Shown piece by piece: positions 1 to 30,179 of a stretch of DNA of 31,547 nucleotides (the first letter of the stretch is position 1; each line of letters opens with the position of its first letter). The DNA is from a virus (Duplodnaviria > Caudoviricetes). Under the pieces are notes generated by a model. The model was not told the origin of the DNA, searched no databases, and saw only the letters and a list, made by a program, of their open reading frames with translations. The stretch spans positions 1 through 31,547 of the IMG/VR virus record IMGVR_UViG_3300005758_000683. One strand, written 5' to 3'. Both the position numbers and the translations under genes were made by a program.

Positions 1-1212
1 AGCTGGACCACAAGTTGGAGTACAAGTATATCTACTACTGCTTCAACTACTTGGAGCACTAGTCAAGCAACAACCACAACGTGGAGTACTACCTGGACTA
101 CTGCATGGTTAACTAACAGAACCACTAGCATTAGCACCAGTCAAACAACTACAGTATCTCGAAGCACAAGCCAAGCAACTACAATACTTACAAGTTGGAC
201 CACCTCGTGGAATACAGCAGGTAACACTAGCGTTACTACAAGTAGTTCTACTAGTCAAAATACTGTAAAAAGTGCGAACTGTACACAAACACAAGCTGGC
301 GTGACTTGGTATGATAACTGCCCAACAAACTATATTAATTATACTATCAATTCTGTTTGCGGACCTAGTATAAATTGCTCAAATTTATGTACTTCCAATG
401 ATTGTCGTTTTTATCAAATAACTTATAACTATAACGCAACAACAAGCTGGACTACAAGTTGGACTACAAGCTGGGCCACTACAAAAACTACGAGTGTAAC
501 TACAAGCATAAATACCTCTGTTACAACTACCTGGACAACTAGTTGGTCGCAAGCAACAACTTGGAACACTAGCTGGACTACTGGTTGGAATACTAGTCAA
601 AGCACTAGCGTATCTACAAGTCAGTCTACAACCACCAGCTGGTCAACTTCTAGAAACACTACTTGGACTACTACTTGGACTACAAGCCAAGGAACCTCAC
701 AAAGTACTACTAGATCTACAACTACTACGTGGACCACTGACTGGACTACTACATGGGCTACAACAGGTACCACAAGCCAAAACACAGCAATTAATACTGC
801 AATTAGTACTACCACAACTTGGAATTCCGTATGGAATACTAGTTGGGGTACAACAGATACAACAAGTCAAAGCACTAGTAGGACCACCCAAATATCTACA
901 GGTGTTAGTACTACTACAACTTGGAATACTAACTGGAGTACTTCGTGGAATACAACAGGTACAACAAGTCAAAATACTAGTACAGCAACAGTTATAAACA
1001 CTAGTCAAGTAACTGCCACTAACTGGAATACTAGCTGGAATACTAGCTGGAATACAGCAGGTAACACCAGCCAGTCTACCAACATAACCACTGTTATTAA
1101 CACTACACAAACTACTTCAACTACTTGGAATAGTACTTGGAATAGTACTTGGAATACGAATGGTATTACTAGTATAGGTACAAGTATTAGTACCTCGACC
1201 TGGACTCAATAA
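1..1212 (+). CDS. Thr/Ser/Trp-repeat putative tail fibre or virion appendage protein with central Cys-rich knob (5'-truncated)
   Basis: Frame 1 is open from base 1 (SWTTSWSTSI...) to TAA at 1210-1212, so the track start at 301 is internal. Tetrapeptide (T/S/N)T(S/T)X repeats flank a 6-Cys segment. Directly upstream of a tail-assembly-chaperone-like gene. Confidence 0.7.
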   Translation, partial: SWTTSWSTSISTTASTTWSTSQATTTTWSTTWTTAWLTNRTTSISTSQTTTVSRSTSQATTILTSWTTSWNTAGNTSVTTSSSTSQNTVKSANCTQTQAGVTWYDNCPTNYINYTINSVCGPSINCSNLCTSNDCRFYQITYNYNATTSWTTSWTTSWATTKTTSVTTSINTSVTTTWTTSWSQATTWNTSWTTGWNTSQSTSVSTSQSTTTSWSTSRNTTWTTTWTTSQGTSQSTTRSTTTTWTTDWTTTWATTGTTSQNTAINTAISTTTTWNSVWNTSWGTTDTTSQSTSRTTQISTGVSTTTTWNTNWSTSWNTTGTTSQNTSTATVINTSQVTATNWNTSWNTSWNTAGNTSQSTNITTVINTTQTTSTTWNSTWNSTWNTNGITSIGTSISTSTWTQ

Positions 1213-1220
1213 GGATACAT

Positions 1221-1715
1221 ATGTTTATAGCTAGAATTGAAAATGATATTGCTGTTGAATATCCTATTAGTGAGAAACAGTTTCGAAATCGGTTCAAAGA
1301 TGTTTCATTACCAAAAAGATTAACTTCTGAAATACTTAAGTCTCTTGGATATGTTTTTGTGGAAAATGCAGATTTAGACAAGTTTCCACAAGCTACAAAA
1401 GATTTTAGGGTAGTACTTGACTCAGTAGTCAAACAAGGCGATAGGTGGGTACGTACTTATAAGCTAGAACCAGTAGTATTACCCATAGAAAAAAATGCAA
1501 GAATACGTAGACAGTGGGAGCTTGTACGAAAACAAAGAGATGAACTAATCAAACAAATAGAGTGGAAAGTTTCTAGGTACAACAGAGAAATAGCTTTAGG
1601 AATTACTCCCACTGACGATATAGTAGAGCTACATAAGTACATACAAGAACTAACAGATATAACAAAACAGCCAGACCCATTTTTGGTAAAATTTCCTACA
1701 CCTCCCGGAGAATAA
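1221..1715 (+). CDS. Phage tail fibre assembly chaperone-like protein
   Basis: AAGGA RBS. C-terminal W-x2-VR-x2-RD-x-L...YIQELTDITKQPDPF-x3-P pattern typical of Phage_tail_APC/Tfa-like chaperones. Follows the fibre-like gene. Confidence 0.7.
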   Translation: MFIARIENDIAVEYPISEKQFRNRFKDVSLPKRLTSEILKSLGYVFVENADLDKFPQATKDFRVVLDSVVKQGDRWVRTYKLEPVVLPIEKNARIRRQWELVRKQRDELIKQIEWKVSRYNREIALGITPTDDIVELHKYIQELTDITKQPDPFLVKFPTPPGE

Positions 1716-1721
1716 ATTTAA

Positions 1722-2618
1722 ATGCGATTTGCAGATGAGCGGATGACTGATCCAGCTATACAAGAAAAGAAAATAGGTACTTTTGCTAAGCGTAGTAATC
1801 GCAATCAAATAGCAGAAAAGTACGAAGACTTAATAAGAGATAATGCTCCATACCCTATTTCTTATGACGTTAGTCAAATTCAACCACTTAATTTTTCAGA
1901 GTATACTTACACAGAACTATTAAGTGGTTTCTGGATAGCAACACAGTCACTAGAAATAAATTGTAGACTGCTACAAGAAGCAAGCAATTACAACAACATA
2001 GACTCAGCTTTAATACCAGAAAAGATTGTGGCAGATAAGTACATACTATCTGACGACATAGAAAAATACAAACACGTAAAAAGAATATGTTTTTTACCAG
2101 GACATAATATGTTAGACGTAGCTAGTGTAGAAATTATTTCTAGACTACTACATGAGAATGACGATATTATGCTTAAGCCACATCCAATAACCAACCAAGA
2201 ATCTTTGAATATTTTTGGAAGTAGGTTTGGATGGAATAAAGTAATTCCCAAAGACGTATCTGGAAATGCTTTATTAAAAAACTGCGACGTAGTTTATACT
2301 ACTACTGCTTCAGAAATGGCAATATCTGGAACGCTTATGGGTAAAAAAGTTGTAAATATTTCTAACTTTTTTAATGAGGGTAGCGGAGCCTATCATCCAA
2401 TAAGCAGAATTTTATTTTCTGCCCACAAACACAGTGTGCACAAAGCACAAGAGTGTTTGCTACGAATTTTTTCGTGTCCTTGGTCTGGTATAGTAGTAGA
2501 GGGTGCTGATAGCCCTGAGTCCAGAATTCACGAGTATTACAAAAAATCGCTAGAATATAGAGACTTTTACAAACCTCTAGCATCTCCGCGAGGAAATAAT
2601 CCTAATAAAAAGGCTTAA
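1722..2618 (+). CDS. Putative glycosyltransferase-like protein (GT-B / capsule-biosynthesis-like)
   Basis: KPHP motif followed by LLKNCDVVYTTTASEMAISGTLMGKKV, resembling the C-terminal Rossmann domain of KpsS/KpsC- or sialyltransferase-like GT-B enzymes. Located next to sugar genes. Confidence 0.45.
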   Translation: MRFADERMTDPAIQEKKIGTFAKRSNRNQIAEKYEDLIRDNAPYPISYDVSQIQPLNFSEYTYTELLSGFWIATQSLEINCRLLQEASNYNNIDSALIPEKIVADKYILSDDIEKYKHVKRICFLPGHNMLDVASVEIISRLLHENDDIMLKPHPITNQESLNIFGSRFGWNKVIPKDVSGNALLKNCDVVYTTTASEMAISGTLMGKKVVNISNFFNEGSGAYHPISRILFSAHKHSVHKAQECLLRIFSCPWSGIVVEGADSPESRIHEYYKKSLEYRDFYKPLASPRGNNPNKKA

Positions 2619-2620
2619 TA

Positions 2621-2830
2621 ATGAGTAACCCAGTTGCTGTGAGAATAGAACTGTGTAAAGCATGTGATAGGTTAAATAAACTAAATTTTTGCTCAGAATG
2701 CGGCTGTTTTATGCCGGCCAAAGTAAGATTTAAGTCGGCTAGCTGCCCTATAGGTAAATGGGGTCGGGTAGAAACTTCACAAGTACCGGATAACACTTTA
2801 ACGACTAACTCAAACCAAACAAATAAATAA
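2621..2830 (+). CDS. Small Cys-rich protein (DUF6171-like)
   Basis: R-x3-CKAC...CSECGCFMPAKV...CPIGKW pattern. Stop overlaps the next start (TAATG). Confidence 0.6.
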   Translation: MSNPVAVRIELCKACDRLNKLNFCSECGCFMPAKVRFKSASCPIGKWGRVETSQVPDNTLTTNSNQTNK

Positions 2831-3873
2831 TGTTAAAAGAAAAAACTACTGTTCTTGTCACAGGTGGTGCAGGCTTTATTGGTCACCACCTAATACGTCG
2901 TCTTTTAAAGCACCCCAATATTAGTGTAGTATCGTTAGATAGATTAGATTTTTCTGGAAACTTAAACAGGCTACATGAATTATCTAAAGAGTTTTCAAAG
3001 GACGACATGTCTAGGCTCAGAGTAGTATATCACGATTTACGAGCAGAAATTAACGATACTTTAGCTAAACAATTGGGTGAGATTGATTATATTATTCACA
3101 TGGCTGCTGGAAGTCATGTGAATAGATCGATTCAAAACCCAATGCTATTTGTACAAGATAACATCGTAGGCACATGCAACTTGTTAGAGTATGCTCGTAA
3201 ACACTTACCAAAACTAAAGAAATTTATTAATTTTGGTACCGACGAAGTATTTGGTTCGGCCCGAGAAGGCGTTGAGTATACAGAATACTCCAGGTACAAT
3301 AGTAGAAGCCCTTATTCAGCAACAAAGGCTGGTGCAGAAGAGTTGTGTGTTGCATACGAAAATACTTACGGTATGCCAATTTACTGTACGCATACAATGA
3401 ATGTATTTGGTGAAAGACAGCTAAACGAAAAGTTTATAGCTATAGTTATTAATAAACTTTTAACCAATCAAGAAGTATTAATACATGCAGATCCAGAAAC
3501 TGGTACAAAATCAGGGCTGCGTCACTGGATACACGCTGCTGATGTTGCAGATGCTACTGTTTTTATAATGGGGTTACCACACAAACAATTTAAACTGGCA
3601 GACAGCAGCGGAGACTTTACTTGCCCAAAATTTAATATTGTTGGGCCAGTAGAGCACAGCAACTTATATGTAGCAGAAAAAATTGCTTCCATAATGAAAC
3701 TACATTTAAAATATAGGTTGGTAAGTTACGATAACCAACGGCCGGGACACGATTTCAGATATAGTTTAAGTGGCCAATATATGAAAGAGCTAGGCTGGGA
3801 ACCAAAATATGACTTTGATACCAGACTAGAACAGGTGGTAACTTGGACCCTAAACAATAAACAGTGGCTATGA
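2830..3873 (+). CDS. rmlB: dTDP-glucose 4,6-dehydratase (extended SDR)
   Basis: GGAGFIG NAD-binding motif, HMAAGSHVNRSI, TDEVFG catalytic segment, YSATK (YxxxK), RPGHDFRY. Confidence 0.9.
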   Translation: MLKEKTTVLVTGGAGFIGHHLIRRLLKHPNISVVSLDRLDFSGNLNRLHELSKEFSKDDMSRLRVVYHDLRAEINDTLAKQLGEIDYIIHMAAGSHVNRSIQNPMLFVQDNIVGTCNLLEYARKHLPKLKKFINFGTDEVFGSAREGVEYTEYSRYNSRSPYSATKAGAEELCVAYENTYGMPIYCTHTMNVFGERQLNEKFIAIVINKLLTNQEVLIHADPETGTKSGLRHWIHAADVADATVFIMGLPHKQFKLADSSGDFTCPKFNIVGPVEHSNLYVAEKIASIMKLHLKYRLVSYDNQRPGHDFRYSLSGQYMKELGWEPKYDFDTRLEQVVTWTLNNKQWL

Positions 3874-5036
3874 GCTATACACCTATTACAAATTGCTTAG
3901 CTTGTAATTCTAGTAAACTATTTAAGTTTTTAGATTTAAAATCTCAACCGCCGGCAAATTCTTATGTAGAAACACCGTGCCAGCAGCCAAGTTATCCTTT
4001 AGGGCTGCAATATTGTGAAACCTGTACTCACGTGCAGCTAACTGTTCAAGTAAATCCTGACGAATTATTTAAAAACTACTTGTATGTGTCCGGCACAAGT
4101 AAAACCGGCCAACAGTATTTTAAAGACTTTGTTGGTGTTACACAAAAATACGTTGAATCAATAAATAATGTTTTAGACATAGCTTGCAATGACGGATCAC
4201 AGCTTGCGTGGTATAAGTCTGCAGGATATAATACATACGGTATTGACCCTGCAGAAAATTTACTGCCGCTAAGTTCTGCGCACGGTAAGGTAGTGTGTGA
4301 CTATCTAACGCAGAATAATATCAAAAGTTTTGGTGTAGATTTTGATGTTATTATAGCACAAAACGTATTTGCACACATTAGCTACACAGAGGACTTTTTA
4401 CAATACTGCAAATCAGTGTTGTCGGATACTGGTGCTATATTTGTACAAACGTCCCAAGCAAACATGGTATTTAACGGCGAGTTTGACACAGTATACCACG
4501 AACACTTGTCGTTTTTTAGTCCAGAATCGGTGTTGGCTTTAGCCAAGCGTGTTGGTTTGTATCTGGTAGACATATTGACCCCCAGCATTCACGGCACTAG
4601 CTATGTATTTATTTTACGCAAACACGGAAGTCACGTAGATATTACTAAGTTTCGTAAAGTTACTAAAAGCACGGTAGAGTCTTTTTCTTTAAAAGTAGTT
4701 TCTATTGTTTCAGCCACTAAACAAATTATTGATAACTATAGAAGTGCCGGGTACAAGGTAGTAGGTTATGGTGCTGCCGCTAAGTCTAACACGTTTATAA
4801 ATTTTAGCGGAATAACTTTAGATTATATACTAGACGATAATTCACTAAAACAAGGGCTGTATACTCCCGGAAGTAATATTTTAATTAAAGCACCTAGTAC
4901 TTTACTGCACGAGTCAAACAAATTGCTAGTAATACCACTAGCTTGGAATTTTTATGATGAAATAAAGTCCAAGGTACTAAGAGCACTTCCACAGGCTCAA
5001 TTTTTACGATACTATCCCTACATACATATTGAATAA
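3870..5036 (+). CDS. SAM-dependent NDP-sugar C-methyltransferase
   Basis: N-terminal Zn motif CLAC...CETCTHVQL, LDIACNDG SAM motif, YHEHLSFFS, IHGTS, GYGAAAKSNT, KQGLYTPGS (TcaB9/EryBIII-type architecture). ATG at 3870 overlaps the rmlB stop (ATGA). Confidence 0.85.
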   Translation: MSYTPITNCLACNSSKLFKFLDLKSQPPANSYVETPCQQPSYPLGLQYCETCTHVQLTVQVNPDELFKNYLYVSGTSKTGQQYFKDFVGVTQKYVESINNVLDIACNDGSQLAWYKSAGYNTYGIDPAENLLPLSSAHGKVVCDYLTQNNIKSFGVDFDVIIAQNVFAHISYTEDFLQYCKSVLSDTGAIFVQTSQANMVFNGEFDTVYHEHLSFFSPESVLALAKRVGLYLVDILTPSIHGTSYVFILRKHGSHVDITKFRKVTKSTVESFSLKVVSIVSATKQIIDNYRSAGYKVVGYGAAAKSNTFINFSGITLDYILDDNSLKQGLYTPGSNILIKAPSTLLHESNKLLVIPLAWNFYDEIKSKVLRALPQAQFLRYYPYIHIE

Positions 5037-5767
5037 TGCAACATTATAAAATAATAGTATTAGTAATAGCTACTACCGGTGGCGTTTATGATGAGTTTCG
5101 TAAAATATACAGCAAATACTCCGATACAAATAATCATATAAAAGTATTGTTTGCGTATGGTAAGCCTAGTATTGGCGATCATCAGTACTCAAGTAAAGAT
5201 TTAGTGTTTGATACTATAGAGGATAATTATTATCCCGGAATGCTAAAGAAAACCCTGTATGCACTAAAACATATAAATAATACCTATAGTTATGACTTTT
5301 TAGTGCGTACTAACTTGAGTACTTTTTGGGTTTTTGACAAGTTATTGCAAAGAGTATCGTCACTGCCTACAACCAACGTGGTATCAGGTACATTTAGAAA
5401 AGCTGTGGATAACTTTGGTAGGCAATTGCCAGAATATATTTCAGGAACTGGTATAGTGCTATCCAGAGATATGGTAGACGTTCTAGTATCGGATAAAACC
5501 ATACTTGATACAGAATATCCTGAAGATTTTGCCATTAGTAATTGTTTTGTAACAAAAGGAATACGCCTGACTAGAGCAGTACCCAGACCAATATGCTTAC
5601 TAGAACAAAATAGGGCTATAAACCCTAGCGACATTGAAAAGCTGTTAGAGCTAAACACCAGTACAAATATCGACCACTACAGGATTAAAAGCAGTGTTGA
5701 TTTAAGACACCAGGATATACACATAGCAAATAAGCTGTTAAATTTTTACTATGGCAAAACACTATAA
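5036..5767 (+). CDS. Putative GT-A-fold glycosyltransferase (GT31/galactosyltransferase-like), paralog 1
   Basis: KKTLYALKHI...YDFLVRTNLSTFW...YISGTGIVLSRDMV...PEDFAIS follows the GT31 motif order, but the canonical DxD is absent. Confidence 0.6.
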   Translation: MQHYKIIVLVIATTGGVYDEFRKIYSKYSDTNNHIKVLFAYGKPSIGDHQYSSKDLVFDTIEDNYYPGMLKKTLYALKHINNTYSYDFLVRTNLSTFWVFDKLLQRVSSLPTTNVVSGTFRKAVDNFGRQLPEYISGTGIVLSRDMVDVLVSDKTILDTEYPEDFAISNCFVTKGIRLTRAVPRPICLLEQNRAINPSDIEKLLELNTSTNIDHYRIKSSVDLRHQDIHIANKLLNFYYGKTL

Positions 5768-6470
5768 GGCCATTATACTAGTACTAGCATCTGAAGGGCC
5801 GCTGTATAATGAATTTAAGTCTTTGTATGAAAAGTATTTAGACTGTAGTCCAGATATTAAGGCATTTTTTACTTATGCAGGAAAAGTATCGTTTTCTCCA
5901 AAAGAACACGATTTAGTATACCCGGACTTGCAAGAAAATATACTACAACCTTGGCCAACTAAAAAAGTAGTTAGAGCCCTAGAGTATATTGACGCTAATT
6001 ATTCTTATGACTACATAGTAAGAACAAATTTAAGTACTTTTTGGGTGTTTAACAGATTAATAGCTAGGTTAAATACTCTACCTAAACACAATGTTATAAG
6101 TGGAAGAGTTGGATATATACCTCCTGAATTTGTGGTTGGTACTGATATGGTGATATCAAGAAATTTAATACAAGCACTGATTCACAATCAGCACCAGGCT
6201 TTTAAAGACTATAAGGGAAAATACATAGCTGAAGATAGGATACTAAGTGAGTTTTTTACTGAATTTTGCGGAGTCCCTCTAATACCGGACAACAAATCCG
6301 TACGAAATGTAGAAAGACTAACAGAATATTCCCAAATCTATGTACAAAAATGTATTTCCAGAGACCCAGCGTATATAGACCATTACAGAGTTAAAAATGT
6401 AGCGGATCGACAAATAGATATTAACGTAATCAAAGATTTAATATCTTATTACTATGGTATAAACGCCTAA
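5751..6470 (+). CDS. Putative GT-A-fold glycosyltransferase, paralog 2
   Basis: YDYIVRTNLSTFWVF, FVVGTDMVISR, AEDRILS, DHYRVK are colinear with the upstream paralog. Confidence 0.6.
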   Translation: MAKHYKAIILVLASEGPLYNEFKSLYEKYLDCSPDIKAFFTYAGKVSFSPKEHDLVYPDLQENILQPWPTKKVVRALEYIDANYSYDYIVRTNLSTFWVFNRLIARLNTLPKHNVISGRVGYIPPEFVVGTDMVISRNLIQALIHNQHQAFKDYKGKYIAEDRILSEFFTEFCGVPLIPDNKSVRNVERLTEYSQIYVQKCISRDPAYIDHYRVKNVADRQIDINVIKDLISYYYGINA

Positions 6471-21352: not shown

Positions 21353-21999
21353 TACCTTTTAGCTCTATTATTATTTACTATTAAATCTACGTATTTTTCG
21401 TATTTTCTTGGTAAATAAACTGTGGCACCATTATATATCCAGTTTAAAAAACTAGTAGAGTCTTTTACGCCAAATTGAATATGCCAACAGTTAGCAGCTT
21501 TTTTCTGAATGGAACCGCCCACTACTATACTTTCAGATATTAAGAGTTGAAGTACCTCTTGTAAAAATACTAAACTACCACTTGTTAAAAATACTCTAAA
21601 AGTTGCTTTTGGCCTGTTATTAAAAAACGTAGTAATACACCCATCACCATCAAAAAACCCGCGTAAATAATGCTGATAATTGTCTAAGTTAGGCAATAGT
21701 GGGAGTATTAAGTTATGCGTTTTATCTACAGATACAGCATATTTATAATACAGATCACTAGTAATTATTGGGGAGCAAAACCCTACTTTGTACGAGTCTT
21801 TTTTATCATTATGTGATACTAAGTGCTCGGATTTGCAAAATTGTTTAAATCTAAAAACGTGGTCTTTATCTTTAGCTGCTAGTTCTACTCTTACTGTATT
21901 GTCTTTTCCTATACAACCATCGGCAGCCAGGAATCCGGCCCAATAGCAAGATTCCTGGGTATACTCTTTAAAAGCTGTCTCGTCAATTTCTTTTTTCAT
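21352..21999 (-). CDS. Double-motif LAGLIDADG homing endonuclease
   Basis: YWAGFLAADGCI and YLRGFFDGDGCI motifs, C-terminal YLPRKY. AT-rich, with its own promoter. Confidence 0.88.
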   Translation of the reverse strand: MKKEIDETAFKEYTQESCYWAGFLAADGCIGKDNTVRVELAAKDKDHVFRFKQFCKSEHLVSHNDKKDSYKVGFCSPIITSDLYYKYAVSVDKTHNLILPLLPNLDNYQHYLRGFFDGDGCITTFFNNRPKATFRVFLTSGSLVFLQEVLQLLISESIVVGGSIQKKAANCWHIQFGVKDSTSFLNWIYNGATVYLPRKYEKYVDLIVNNNRAKR

Positions 22000-26841: not shown

Positions 26842-27153
26842 TTATCCTACTTTAGATTCATTGTCAATGATAACTTGGTCAATAATTTCCGTTACTTTGT
26901 AAAGAACTTGTTCACGCAACTTTTTCAAGTCTTGCTGATACGCTGCATCTTTGTCGTATAGCAGGCTAAGCTGTTCGTGTGTAATAAGCTGTTGTAGCCC
27001 AAAGTAGATGTGATCGTATGCCATTGTTGATTCAGGCATAATCTCTACTTGTGCTGCTCGGCCGTAGTTGTGTACAGCCTGTTTTACAACTTCTTCTACC
27101 GTAAAGGAGTCGTTATCGTGGTATGTAATAGTTACTTTCATGCGAGTGTCCAA
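26842..27153 (-). CDS. Hypothetical protein
   Basis: ORF between the endonuclease and the helicase. Start uncertain (TTG 27153 or ATG 27138). Confidence 0.6.
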   Translation of the reverse strand: MDTRMKVTITYHDNDSFTVEEVVKQAVHNYGRAAQVEIMPESTMAYDHIYFGLQQLITHEQLSLLYDKDAAYQQDLKKLREQVLYKVTEIIDQVIIDNESKVG

Positions 27154-27827
27154 CCTTTATGTGATTTTCTTTGTTTAGTTAAAACTTTGTGCATATTTTG
27201 TGCTTGTAGGTTGTGCAACTCACAGAATTTATGGATATTATCTACAGTATACAATATACCTTCAGGTGATTTTACATCAGGATATACGATGCCTTTTGAT
27301 TTAGCTGAATTATCCCTAGTATATTTCTTGGACATTACAATACTATAATATTCAGGGCATAAATTTGCTAAATATCCATGTGCAGAGCCGCCCGATATAT
27401 GTTTAATAATATCTCTGCTTACACCAGTTATTTCAGATATTTTCGACGTACTAAAAGTGGTCGTAGCCAAATATTTTAGCACTTCTACATACTTATCTTC
27501 TGTATGTTTTGATGAATGTACTCCTTCACCATAACCACCGCCTTCGCCACCATTAGTAAGATTTAAGCCTGTTTTAAATGAATCAAATTCCTGAATATAC
27601 TGAATCTCTAATTCTTTTAGATTATCTGGGTGTGCCAATTCTAATATTTCGAAATTTGGCATACCATATTTATTGTAATAGTTTTGTAGTTTTTTATTTA
27701 CGTGTCTATTAGCTATTAAGGCACTTTTATGCTCCTGCTGCCTTACGTACAGGTTAGTGGACCTACCAATGTAAAACTCATTAGGATGTTGGTCAAAATA
27801 TATTGCATATATTCCGCAGTTATCCAT
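27138..27827 (-). CDS. GIY-YIG homing endonuclease (Seg-like)
   Basis: CGIYAIY...FYIGRS...R...H, E, N motifs and C-terminal SPEG...HKGW domain. ATG 27827 is preferred by alignment with the paralog; the track start 27857 lies inside a terminator stem. Confidence 0.85.
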   Translation of the reverse strand: MDNCGIYAIYFDQHPNEFYIGRSTNLYVRQQEHKSALIANRHVNKKLQNYYNKYGMPNFEILELAHPDNLKELEIQYIQEFDSFKTGLNLTNGGEGGGYGEGVHSSKHTEDKYVEVLKYLATTTFSTSKISEITGVSRDIIKHISGGSAHGYLANLCPEYYSIVMSKKYTRDNSAKSKGIVYPDVKSPEGILYTVDNIHKFCELHNLQAQNMHKVLTKQRKSHKGWTLA

Positions 27828-27846
27828 TGTAATCAATAACACAACT

Positions 27847-27883
27847 AAAAAAGGCATAGGTAGTCATACTACCCTATGCCTTT
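27847..27883 (-). terminator. Rho-independent terminator after D5
   Basis: Minus strand AAAGGCATAGG-GTAGTATGACTA-CCTATGCCTTTTTT. A second hairpin (AGCAACTA/TAGTTGCT) spans the D5 stop. Confidence 0.8.
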
Positions 27884-29492: not shown

Positions 29493-30179
29493 TTAAGCAT
29501 CTACACGTCTCCAGCCTTTATGAAAATTACGTGTACCTTTTAATAGTTCTGTAACTTTTGGCTGTAATAGTCCGTGTTGTTTTGCAAAGTTTGTAACGTG
29601 TGTAACTTCGTGCACTATTCCTTCTGGAGAAATAAGTTTTGGATATTGTGTACCATAGTGATATGGTGAATCTTTTTTGAGCTGTTCTAGTTTTGCATAC
29701 AGCTCTGGTTCAACTTCTTTCATCCATGTGTGACTTTCTAATGCTGCTATATGGCGAATAGTGTATATAGATACGCCAGTTAGTTCTTCAATTTGACGTT
29801 TGTTTAGCGTTGGGCTATCTTGTACTAGCAATCGCAAAACATTTAAGTATTGCTCATTAGAATATTTTGATGTACCTGCCTTATCTCCAAATAATACTGG
29901 ATTCCCTGCTTCCGCGAGTGTATTAAATCCATTATTAACCGAGTCATATATTTCAATAGCTTCTTTTTCAAGAGCATTAAGCTCACTAATTCTACACTCA
30001 GCTAGAACTTCTAGTATCGGCATACCATATACATCGAAGCCTTTTTGCAACTTTGGTGTAGCTGCGTTTCTGTTAAAGGCACTTCTATGTTTTATGTATC
30101 TATCTTCTATGTCGATAGATTGACCAACATACACTTTATCAGTGTTACTAAACTTCAATAAATATATTCCACAAGACAT
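29493..30179 (-). CDS. GIY-YIG homing endonuclease (Seg-like)
   Basis: CGIYLLKF...VYVGQS...R...H, E, GFN and C-terminal SPEG...HKGW. GAGG RBS. Confidence 0.88.
   Translation of the reverse strand: MSCGIYLLKFSNTDKVYVGQSIDIEDRYIKHRSAFNRNAATPKLQKGFDVYGMPILEVLAECRISELNALEKEAIEIYDSVNNGFNTLAEAGNPVLFGDKAGTSKYSNEQYLNVLRLLVQDSPTLNKRQIEELTGVSIYTIRHIAALESHTWMKEVEPELYAKLEQLKKDSPYHYGTQYPKLISPEGIVHEVTHVTNFAKQHGLLQPKVTELLKGTRNFHKGWRRVDA

Follow-up and report, generated by a model that had tools for sequence, protein, structure and literature searches.

Mirror-complementary Thr/Ser-rich proteins of aquatic phages: sequence evidence for a proposed zipper-like fibre architecture

A phage gene for a Thr/Ser-rich protein was found to encode two arms that mirror each other at the level of single residues. 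This mirror pattern is real and widespread, and the antiparallel complementarity on which it is based, found both in cis and in trans, is conserved in its rule and not in its sequence, providing strong sequence evidence for a zipper-like fibre architecture. Since the halves match position by position and relatives split them over two genes, a thin two-stranded fibre is likely. The reading that we consider probable is an antiparallel two-stranded β-ribbon of about 85 nm, which would be docked on the tip of a tail fibre, would carry a variable head and is possibly glycosylated.

The window, i.e., the whole stretch of 31,547 nucleotides that was analysed, contains genes for DNA polymerase A, a primase, a DnaB helicase, a split NAD ligase, SbcC/D, a D5-like regulator, an endolysin and PhoH, a set that we take to be T5-like. 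Contigs from two DNA sequencing runs cover the stretch piecewise, with no joints or indels. The mirror (hairpin) gene is an ORF of 403 codons that is open at its 5′ end; this part of the protein consists of 55% Thr plus Ser and contains 36 Trp and six central Cys residues. The gene, its parts and its neighbours are as follows:

1..1212, + strand: Thr/Ser-rich mirror (hairpin) protein, 3′ 403 codons of 583 aa, the other 180 codons lying upstream of the window
1..258, + strand: distal part of the outgoing arm, window residues 1-86 (full-length residues 181-266)
259..447, + strand: central knob with six Cys at window residues 94, 107, 120, 126, 130 and 135
448..1209, + strand: return arm, window residues 150-403, pairing at i+j=236 (596 in full-length numbering) up to the C-terminus
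1221..1715, + strand: tail-fibre assembly chaperone (PF16778, E 4.6e-6)
1722..2618, + strand: KpsC/KpsS-like (Capsule_synth) protein of predicted GT-B fold (phrog_26179), the constant neighbour of the hairpin gene
2621..2830, + strand: small Cys-rich DUF6171-like protein (E 1e-5, slightly below the Pfam cut-off) that travels with Cys-knob hairpins
2830..6470, + strand: sugar cluster with an NDP-sugar epimerase/dehydratase, a C-methyltransferase and two similar-looking ORFs

A preliminary description of this DNA had aligned the arms on both sides of the Cys segment antiparallel at i+j=236 and had named 22 pairs at the variable positions. All 22 are present in the sequence; 19 of them contain exactly one Trp and none contains two, as had been stated. 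The uniqueness of this register within the window holds by fraction, where S=236 ranks first at 0.85, and fails by raw count, since S=516 (19) and S=482 (18) exceed S=236 (17) and S=546 and S=550 tie with it. This ambiguity in the raw counts arises because the repeats are internally periodic.

Two loci (L001 and L002), retrieved with the downstream gene as query, supplied the missing 5′ part of the gene. Over 10,615 bases L001 and the window are identical; both loci may belong to the same virus population as the window and were used solely to supply the gene start. The reading frame extends upstream by 180 codons to an ORF of 583 aa, at least about 167 further codons having been predicted. Registers are scored in the following as triples, which for this protein give the numbers of Trp opposite Gln/Arg/Lys/Ile/Val/Leu, of Trp/Trp and of Trp opposite small residues. 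At the register fixed beforehand (596), the upstream arm proved complementary as anticipated, scoring 32/0/3, the best of 250 registers by a margin of only 2 over the runner-up S=562 (30). The whole 583-aa protein scores 49/0/6 at 596 and 39 net at the next register, and none of 300 shuffles of the repeat units reached 49 (mean 22.4, maximum 34). The coincidence of the breaks in the repeat period on the two arms, first noticed within the window, extends to 7 of 7 breaks in the full protein, and the C-terminus falls opposite residue 13. The register is settled by the missing 5′ part; by fraction, local hairpin registers do equally well in the full protein (0.905 for S=188 and 0.889 for S=154, compared with 0.891).

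At register 596, one face of the ladder carries Thr/Thr in 61 of 127 pairs, alternating with Trp/Gln (25), Trp/Ile (11), Trp/Val (8) and Trp/Arg (5), while 241 of the 254 residues on the opposite face are small (S/T/N/A/G/D). A two-face alternation of this kind is the pattern expected for an antiparallel β-ribbon. The 254 pairs compute to 84–89 nm, in line with the earlier estimate of about 85 nm. Regarding the proposed pairing code, Trp opposite Gln, Arg or an aliphatic residue was confirmed, and the restriction to Trp has to be given up in favour of an aromatic residue opposite Gln, Arg, Lys, His or an aliphatic residue, alternating with Thr/Thr. The mirror protein is very likely a β-ribbon, and if it is one, the chain likely folds back on itself as a monomer. 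The AlphaFold2 models were uninformative and showed no long hairpin, neither for the full protein from a single sequence (pLDDT 32) nor for the central 165 residues with an alignment of eight rows (pLDDT 42), and a Foldseek search with the latter model gave no match at E<=0.001.

Direct homology searches with the hairpin protein yielded no match in one case and a single marginal one in another, and an Atlas search returned scores below 0.9 and one model with a pLDDT of 0.27. Relatives were therefore reached via the neighbouring enzyme gene and via DNA motifs. An alignment of 68 enzyme proteins led to 125 further loci. Among three scans with stalk DNA motifs, one found no loci, while the first and second motifs gave 41 and 33 loci, respectively. 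A true hairpin-type ORF is present in 13 of the 41 loci, 10 of them new, and is adjoined by the enzyme in all 13; the other 28 are short or off-frame matches. Eight of the 33 second-motif loci lack a qualifying ORF. Many loci are related or redundant, and the family counts given here are not independent.

The two arms are tightly coupled in length. Among the 38 of 47 distinct proteins that contain at least four Cys, the length before the first Cys correlates with that after the last Cys with r=0.993, the N-terminal arm exceeding the C-terminal one by a median of 12 residues; the Cys count is even in 36 of the 38. Indels in one arm were compensated within three residues by indels in the other in 19 of 28 within-group contrasts (e.g., 63/66, 48/48 and 76/78), and the nine uncompensated contrasts involve L020, L037 and L087. 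L020 and L021 as well as L037 and L049 are near-identical pairs in which a single repeat of 26 or 10 residues differs in one arm only; these are either evolutionary intermediates or collapsed assemblies.

In many members the outer Cys pairs show a constant sum near the protein length plus 12, as in L047 with ten pairs at sums 377-382, and in L119 nested mirrored pairs continue up to the centre (sums 331-337). When a fixed score was applied to the first 60 residues past the overhang, their own reversed C-terminus was a better match than the parallel one in 32 of 36 proteins and exceeded the average foreign C-terminus in 30 of 36. When the register was fixed by the outermost Cys pair in 17 homologs, no peak of aromatic-partner pairs at zero shift appeared over the next 40 pairs.

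Single ungapped registers were found in the 1,032-aa L064 (83/1/13, next 44), with Phe/Arg and Phe/Lys rungs, in L157 (82/3/8, next 45) and in the fused form L207 (106/0/28, next 62). L147 can be fitted only by a post-hoc extension of the rule that permits Phe opposite Trp, and the ungapped register is unclear in L003, L136 and Cr30 gp254. Cultured carriers of hairpin and enzyme include the Caulobacter phages Lullwater and DCM, with best registers of 229 (gp41) and 227, and the Vibrio phage KVP40, where KVP40.0254 has a single ungapped register (11/0/2, next 7); Cr30 encodes a hairpin candidate of 116 aa.

The stalk-and-knob architecture that had been proposed stood insofar as a Cys knob and complementary arms are present in the window protein. 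The knob is not a fixed part: across the family it is optional and exchangeable. A knob similar to that of the window is found on different stalks in L013, L015 and L075, and L064 and L157 have no knob and close in a short central turn. In L051 (6093-6971) the central insert is a helical-looking domain with no Cys knob and no Pfam match.

In several viruses the two strands are encoded by separate genes and match in trans at one ungapped register. The longest such match, of about 1,000 positions, is that of L180 (1,211 × 1,042 aa), which scores 214/4/29 compared with 125 at the next register and 64 at the best parallel one. Further split pairs score 187/5/8 (L181), 89/3/32 (L200), 83/2/38 (L210), 70/1/27 (L194), 69/1/44 (L213), 67/0/84 (L201) and 95/0/81 (L198, cut); two short pairs score 25/0/1 (L185) and 24/0/1 (L203), and the register is unclear in L184, L187 and L196. 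The upstream partners in L180 and L181 were retrieved after pairing had been predicted from a cut ORF. When the partners of nine pairs were compared in a 9×9 matrix, the own partner was the best in both row and column for all seven long pairs, and in the column only for the two short ones. The split form is not a frameshift artefact, because the enzyme gene separates the two strand genes in L185. The fused L207 and the split L194 have both termini in common. In L200, L201, L213, L198 and L210 the strand genes are separated by an additional ORF, of 185-349 aa in the cases listed.

The head-bearing chain ends in exchangeable domains, with a significant match to Gly_rich_2 and matches below the cut-off for Hint-like and S74-like domains. 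In L180 (6920-10552, + strand), L181 (6377-9724, + strand) and the L194 gene, a Hint-like domain takes up the head-bearing strand from the end of the arm onwards; its Pfam match is weak for L180 and absent for L194, and self-cleavage is possible. Together with the upstream arm, the arm lengths, compensating indels, mirrored Cys and split genes bear out the out-and-back antiparallel pairing originally suggested.

We propose that the chain would fold back into one continuous antiparallel ribbon, with the knob at the far end and both termini at the base. In the sequence, the order of the rungs and the period breaks makes up a code by which a single register is fixed, also between two gene products. 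Pairing could instead take place between chains, either in a strand-swapped antiparallel dimer or by packing of ribbons into a bundle or tube. That the code can operate in trans is evident from the split forms, and the tip domain encoded upstream is one that ends tail-fibre proteins, which are usually trimers; moreover, a lone two-stranded ribbon of 85 nm would be floppy. This arrangement nevertheless appears unlikely, as the nested mirrored Cys pairs that reach the centre in L119 and the short central turn of the knob-less L064 and L157 fit a fold-back within the chain.

The usual order of genes is tip domain, hairpin, chaperone, enzyme and DUF6171-like gene. Among 92 enzyme loci with 3 kb of upstream sequence, 85 contain a hairpin gene, i.e., pass the hairpin filter, and 78 the tail-fibre tip domain. 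The seven that miss the filter comprise L035, L054 and L101, with a Thr/Ser-rich ORF detected by another filter, the Cr30 candidate, and three with none. The upstream tip domain has matches among the PHROG families of tail fibres and forms the end of a T7-type tail fibre in Lullwater; against solved structures it gave no convincing match (best E 0.046). Members without a tip domain, L008 (6881-7471) and L064 (3505-3669), open with another small N-terminal domain, which suggests a second anchoring system; that of L064 has no convincing match among solved structures. In L136 (2487-3658), a prophage located in a Caulobacter chromosome, the tail-fibre gene of the module is broken by an insertion sequence.

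No neighbour is as constant as the enzyme, which is kept where the knob, the chaperone and the DUF6171-like gene are missing. Its sequence matches KpsC/Capsule_synth weakly (E 0.019 and 0.15) and reaches 11.9 bits against PF05159, under the curated cut-off of 20; its predicted fold resembles predicted Capsule_synth models (GT-B, TM 0.62-0.64), and a KPH motif is invariant. The nearest Atlas cluster has 652 members, 92% of them viral, and the neighbour gene in L180 is an enzyme homolog with a probability of 99.7. Of 39 hairpins with at least four Cys, 38 come with the DUF6171-like gene, as opposed to none of nine with fewer Cys; these counts are inflated by related phages. In the window the sugar cluster (2830-6470) immediately follows the module, to which it may be linked; one of its two similar ORFs has a weak Galactosyl_T match (E 0.0023), and a similar epimerase gene lies 3′ of the enzyme in L148 and L157. 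Enrichment of N-glycosylation sequons was considered and rejected, N-x-S/T sites being at chance level (25/43). In L054 (5364-7001) a protein of hairpin type continues into a SASA acetylesterase domain at its C-terminus, and the upstream fibre of L001 carries a GDSL esterase domain.

With these partners, the ribbon would be docked by its 12-residue N-terminal overhang on the tip domain at the C-terminus of the tail fibre whose gene lies just upstream. As a thin stalk it would extend the reach of an exchangeable head that binds the host. The neighbouring KpsC/KpsS-like enzyme may glycosylate or otherwise service the Ser/Thr face, and the DUF6171-like protein may help to form the knob disulfides. 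We regard a stalk that is docked on the fibre tip, extends the reach of a variable head and is glycosylated by the neighbouring enzyme as an evenly balanced proposition. According to a different view, the ribbon is a glycan-bearing scaffold, whisker or decoy for the glycosyltransferase product and no tail-tip adhesin. The constancy of the enzyme points in this direction, as do several long members that are headless (L064, L157 and L207) and the sugar genes that follow in the window, L148 and L157. We consider it quite improbable, since the hairpin gene lies directly 3′ of the tail-fibre tip domain in most loci and the heads, among them Gly_rich_2, esterase, Hint-like and S74-like domains, vary and are exchangeable.

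Each unit of 30-34 residues might also fold locally, with its Trp block against its non-Trp block, into stacked short hairpins or a β-solenoid. Parallel shifts of 12-16 residues and local antiparallel registers likewise place Trp opposite Gln/Ile, yet this would leave the equal arm lengths, compensating indels, mirrored Cys, flush termini and partner-specific two-gene matching unexplained, and we judge it very unlikely. A disordered mucin-like linker, whose symmetry would have arisen incidentally through duplication, a DNA palindrome or misassembly, is in keeping with the low-complexity sequence, the low pLDDT and the near-identical tandem units of the N-terminal arm and is largely refuted, its remaining probability being minimal, by symmetry that recurs in unrelated sequences and across two genes, in one case with an enzyme gene between the strands, and by the lack of a DNA inverted or mirror repeat together with varied synonymous codons. 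At the DNA level, a palindrome was rejected as the source of the symmetry (best reverse-complement identity 0.38), as was an mRNA hairpin, only short, chance-like inverted repeats being present.

The fold-back ribbon that we favour was compared with known systems, two of which had been invoked in the preliminary description. The bovine ultralong CDR-H3 has a β-ribbon stalk formed by the start and end of the segment with a disulfide-rich knob on top, as proposed here, the whole CDR comprising 50-70 residues inside an antibody domain (PMC8602281). The phage stalk, in contrast, is free-standing and comprises about 254 pairs, or about 1,000 in L180; its rungs follow a repeating code, and its two strands can come from separate genes. 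Six central Cys, with putative disulfides, lie between complementary arms of equal length, and the protein matches no Ig or other family; homology to CDR-H3 is not claimed. In thrombospondin type 1 repeats, Trp faces Arg/Gln/Lys/Ile of an antiparallel strand and Cys pairs occur, in a three-stranded domain of less than 100 residues with Trp at every third residue of a rippled strand (PMC2173040). The pattern of Trp opposite Arg/Gln/Ile of an antiparallel strand is present in the mirror protein at the sequence level, whereas its Trp recur at every fourth residue with six-residue breaks instead of the WxxWxxW period of three, both strands carry both rung types, and neither a TSP profile nor any other Pfam family matches at E<=0.5. 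The mirror protein is a member of neither class, resembling the stalk and knob of the former and echoing in its sequence the Trp/Arg-Gln chemistry of the latter.

The phage enzyme is like KpsC/KpsS (PF05159) in predicted fold and KPH motif, and differs from them in that its sequence match stays below the cut-off and that it is tied to a phage fibre gene and to no capsule locus. The T-even gp37/gp38 and Mu gpS/gpU systems have the order fibre, tip-bound partner and chaperone, with a PF16778 chaperone and a short N-terminal anchor. The mirror gene occupies the corresponding place between a tail-fibre gene and an assembly chaperone. To our knowledge, described phage fibres are parallel trimers (β-helix, coiled coil or collagen) and known adhesins are compact. 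The 583-aa protein had no matches among Pfam and PHROG fibre families, and no such fibre is described in the literature searched, which lay mostly outside subscription journals.

If correct, the proposal amounts to a new protein architecture, a free antiparallel ribbon spanning hundreds of positions or even a thousand, whose length is set by matched indels and whose partner choice follows a readable residue code. Such a programmable zipper, made of protein and natural in origin, would be of interest to design and materials science, and a fibre of about 85 nm would extend the reach of the virus. The existence of a viral fibre class of this kind seems to us about as plausible as not; its members would be two-stranded zippers of up to about 1,000 positions (about 340 nm), with register and partner given by a residue code akin to base pairing, built in cis or from two genes, with swappable heads and decorated by a dedicated phage glycosyltransferase. 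It also supplies a hypothesis on unannotated genes that form a family in aquatic phages with several types of tail, and it suggests that glycosylation of a putative virion protein may be phage-encoded. The idea is directly testable, because the cultured Caulobacter phages Lullwater, DCM and Cr30 carry short versions.

Apart from the module, genes for LAGLIDADG and GIY-YIG homing endonucleases lie among the replication genes of the window (21355-21999, 27141-27857 and 29496-30179), one of them between the two ligase halves.
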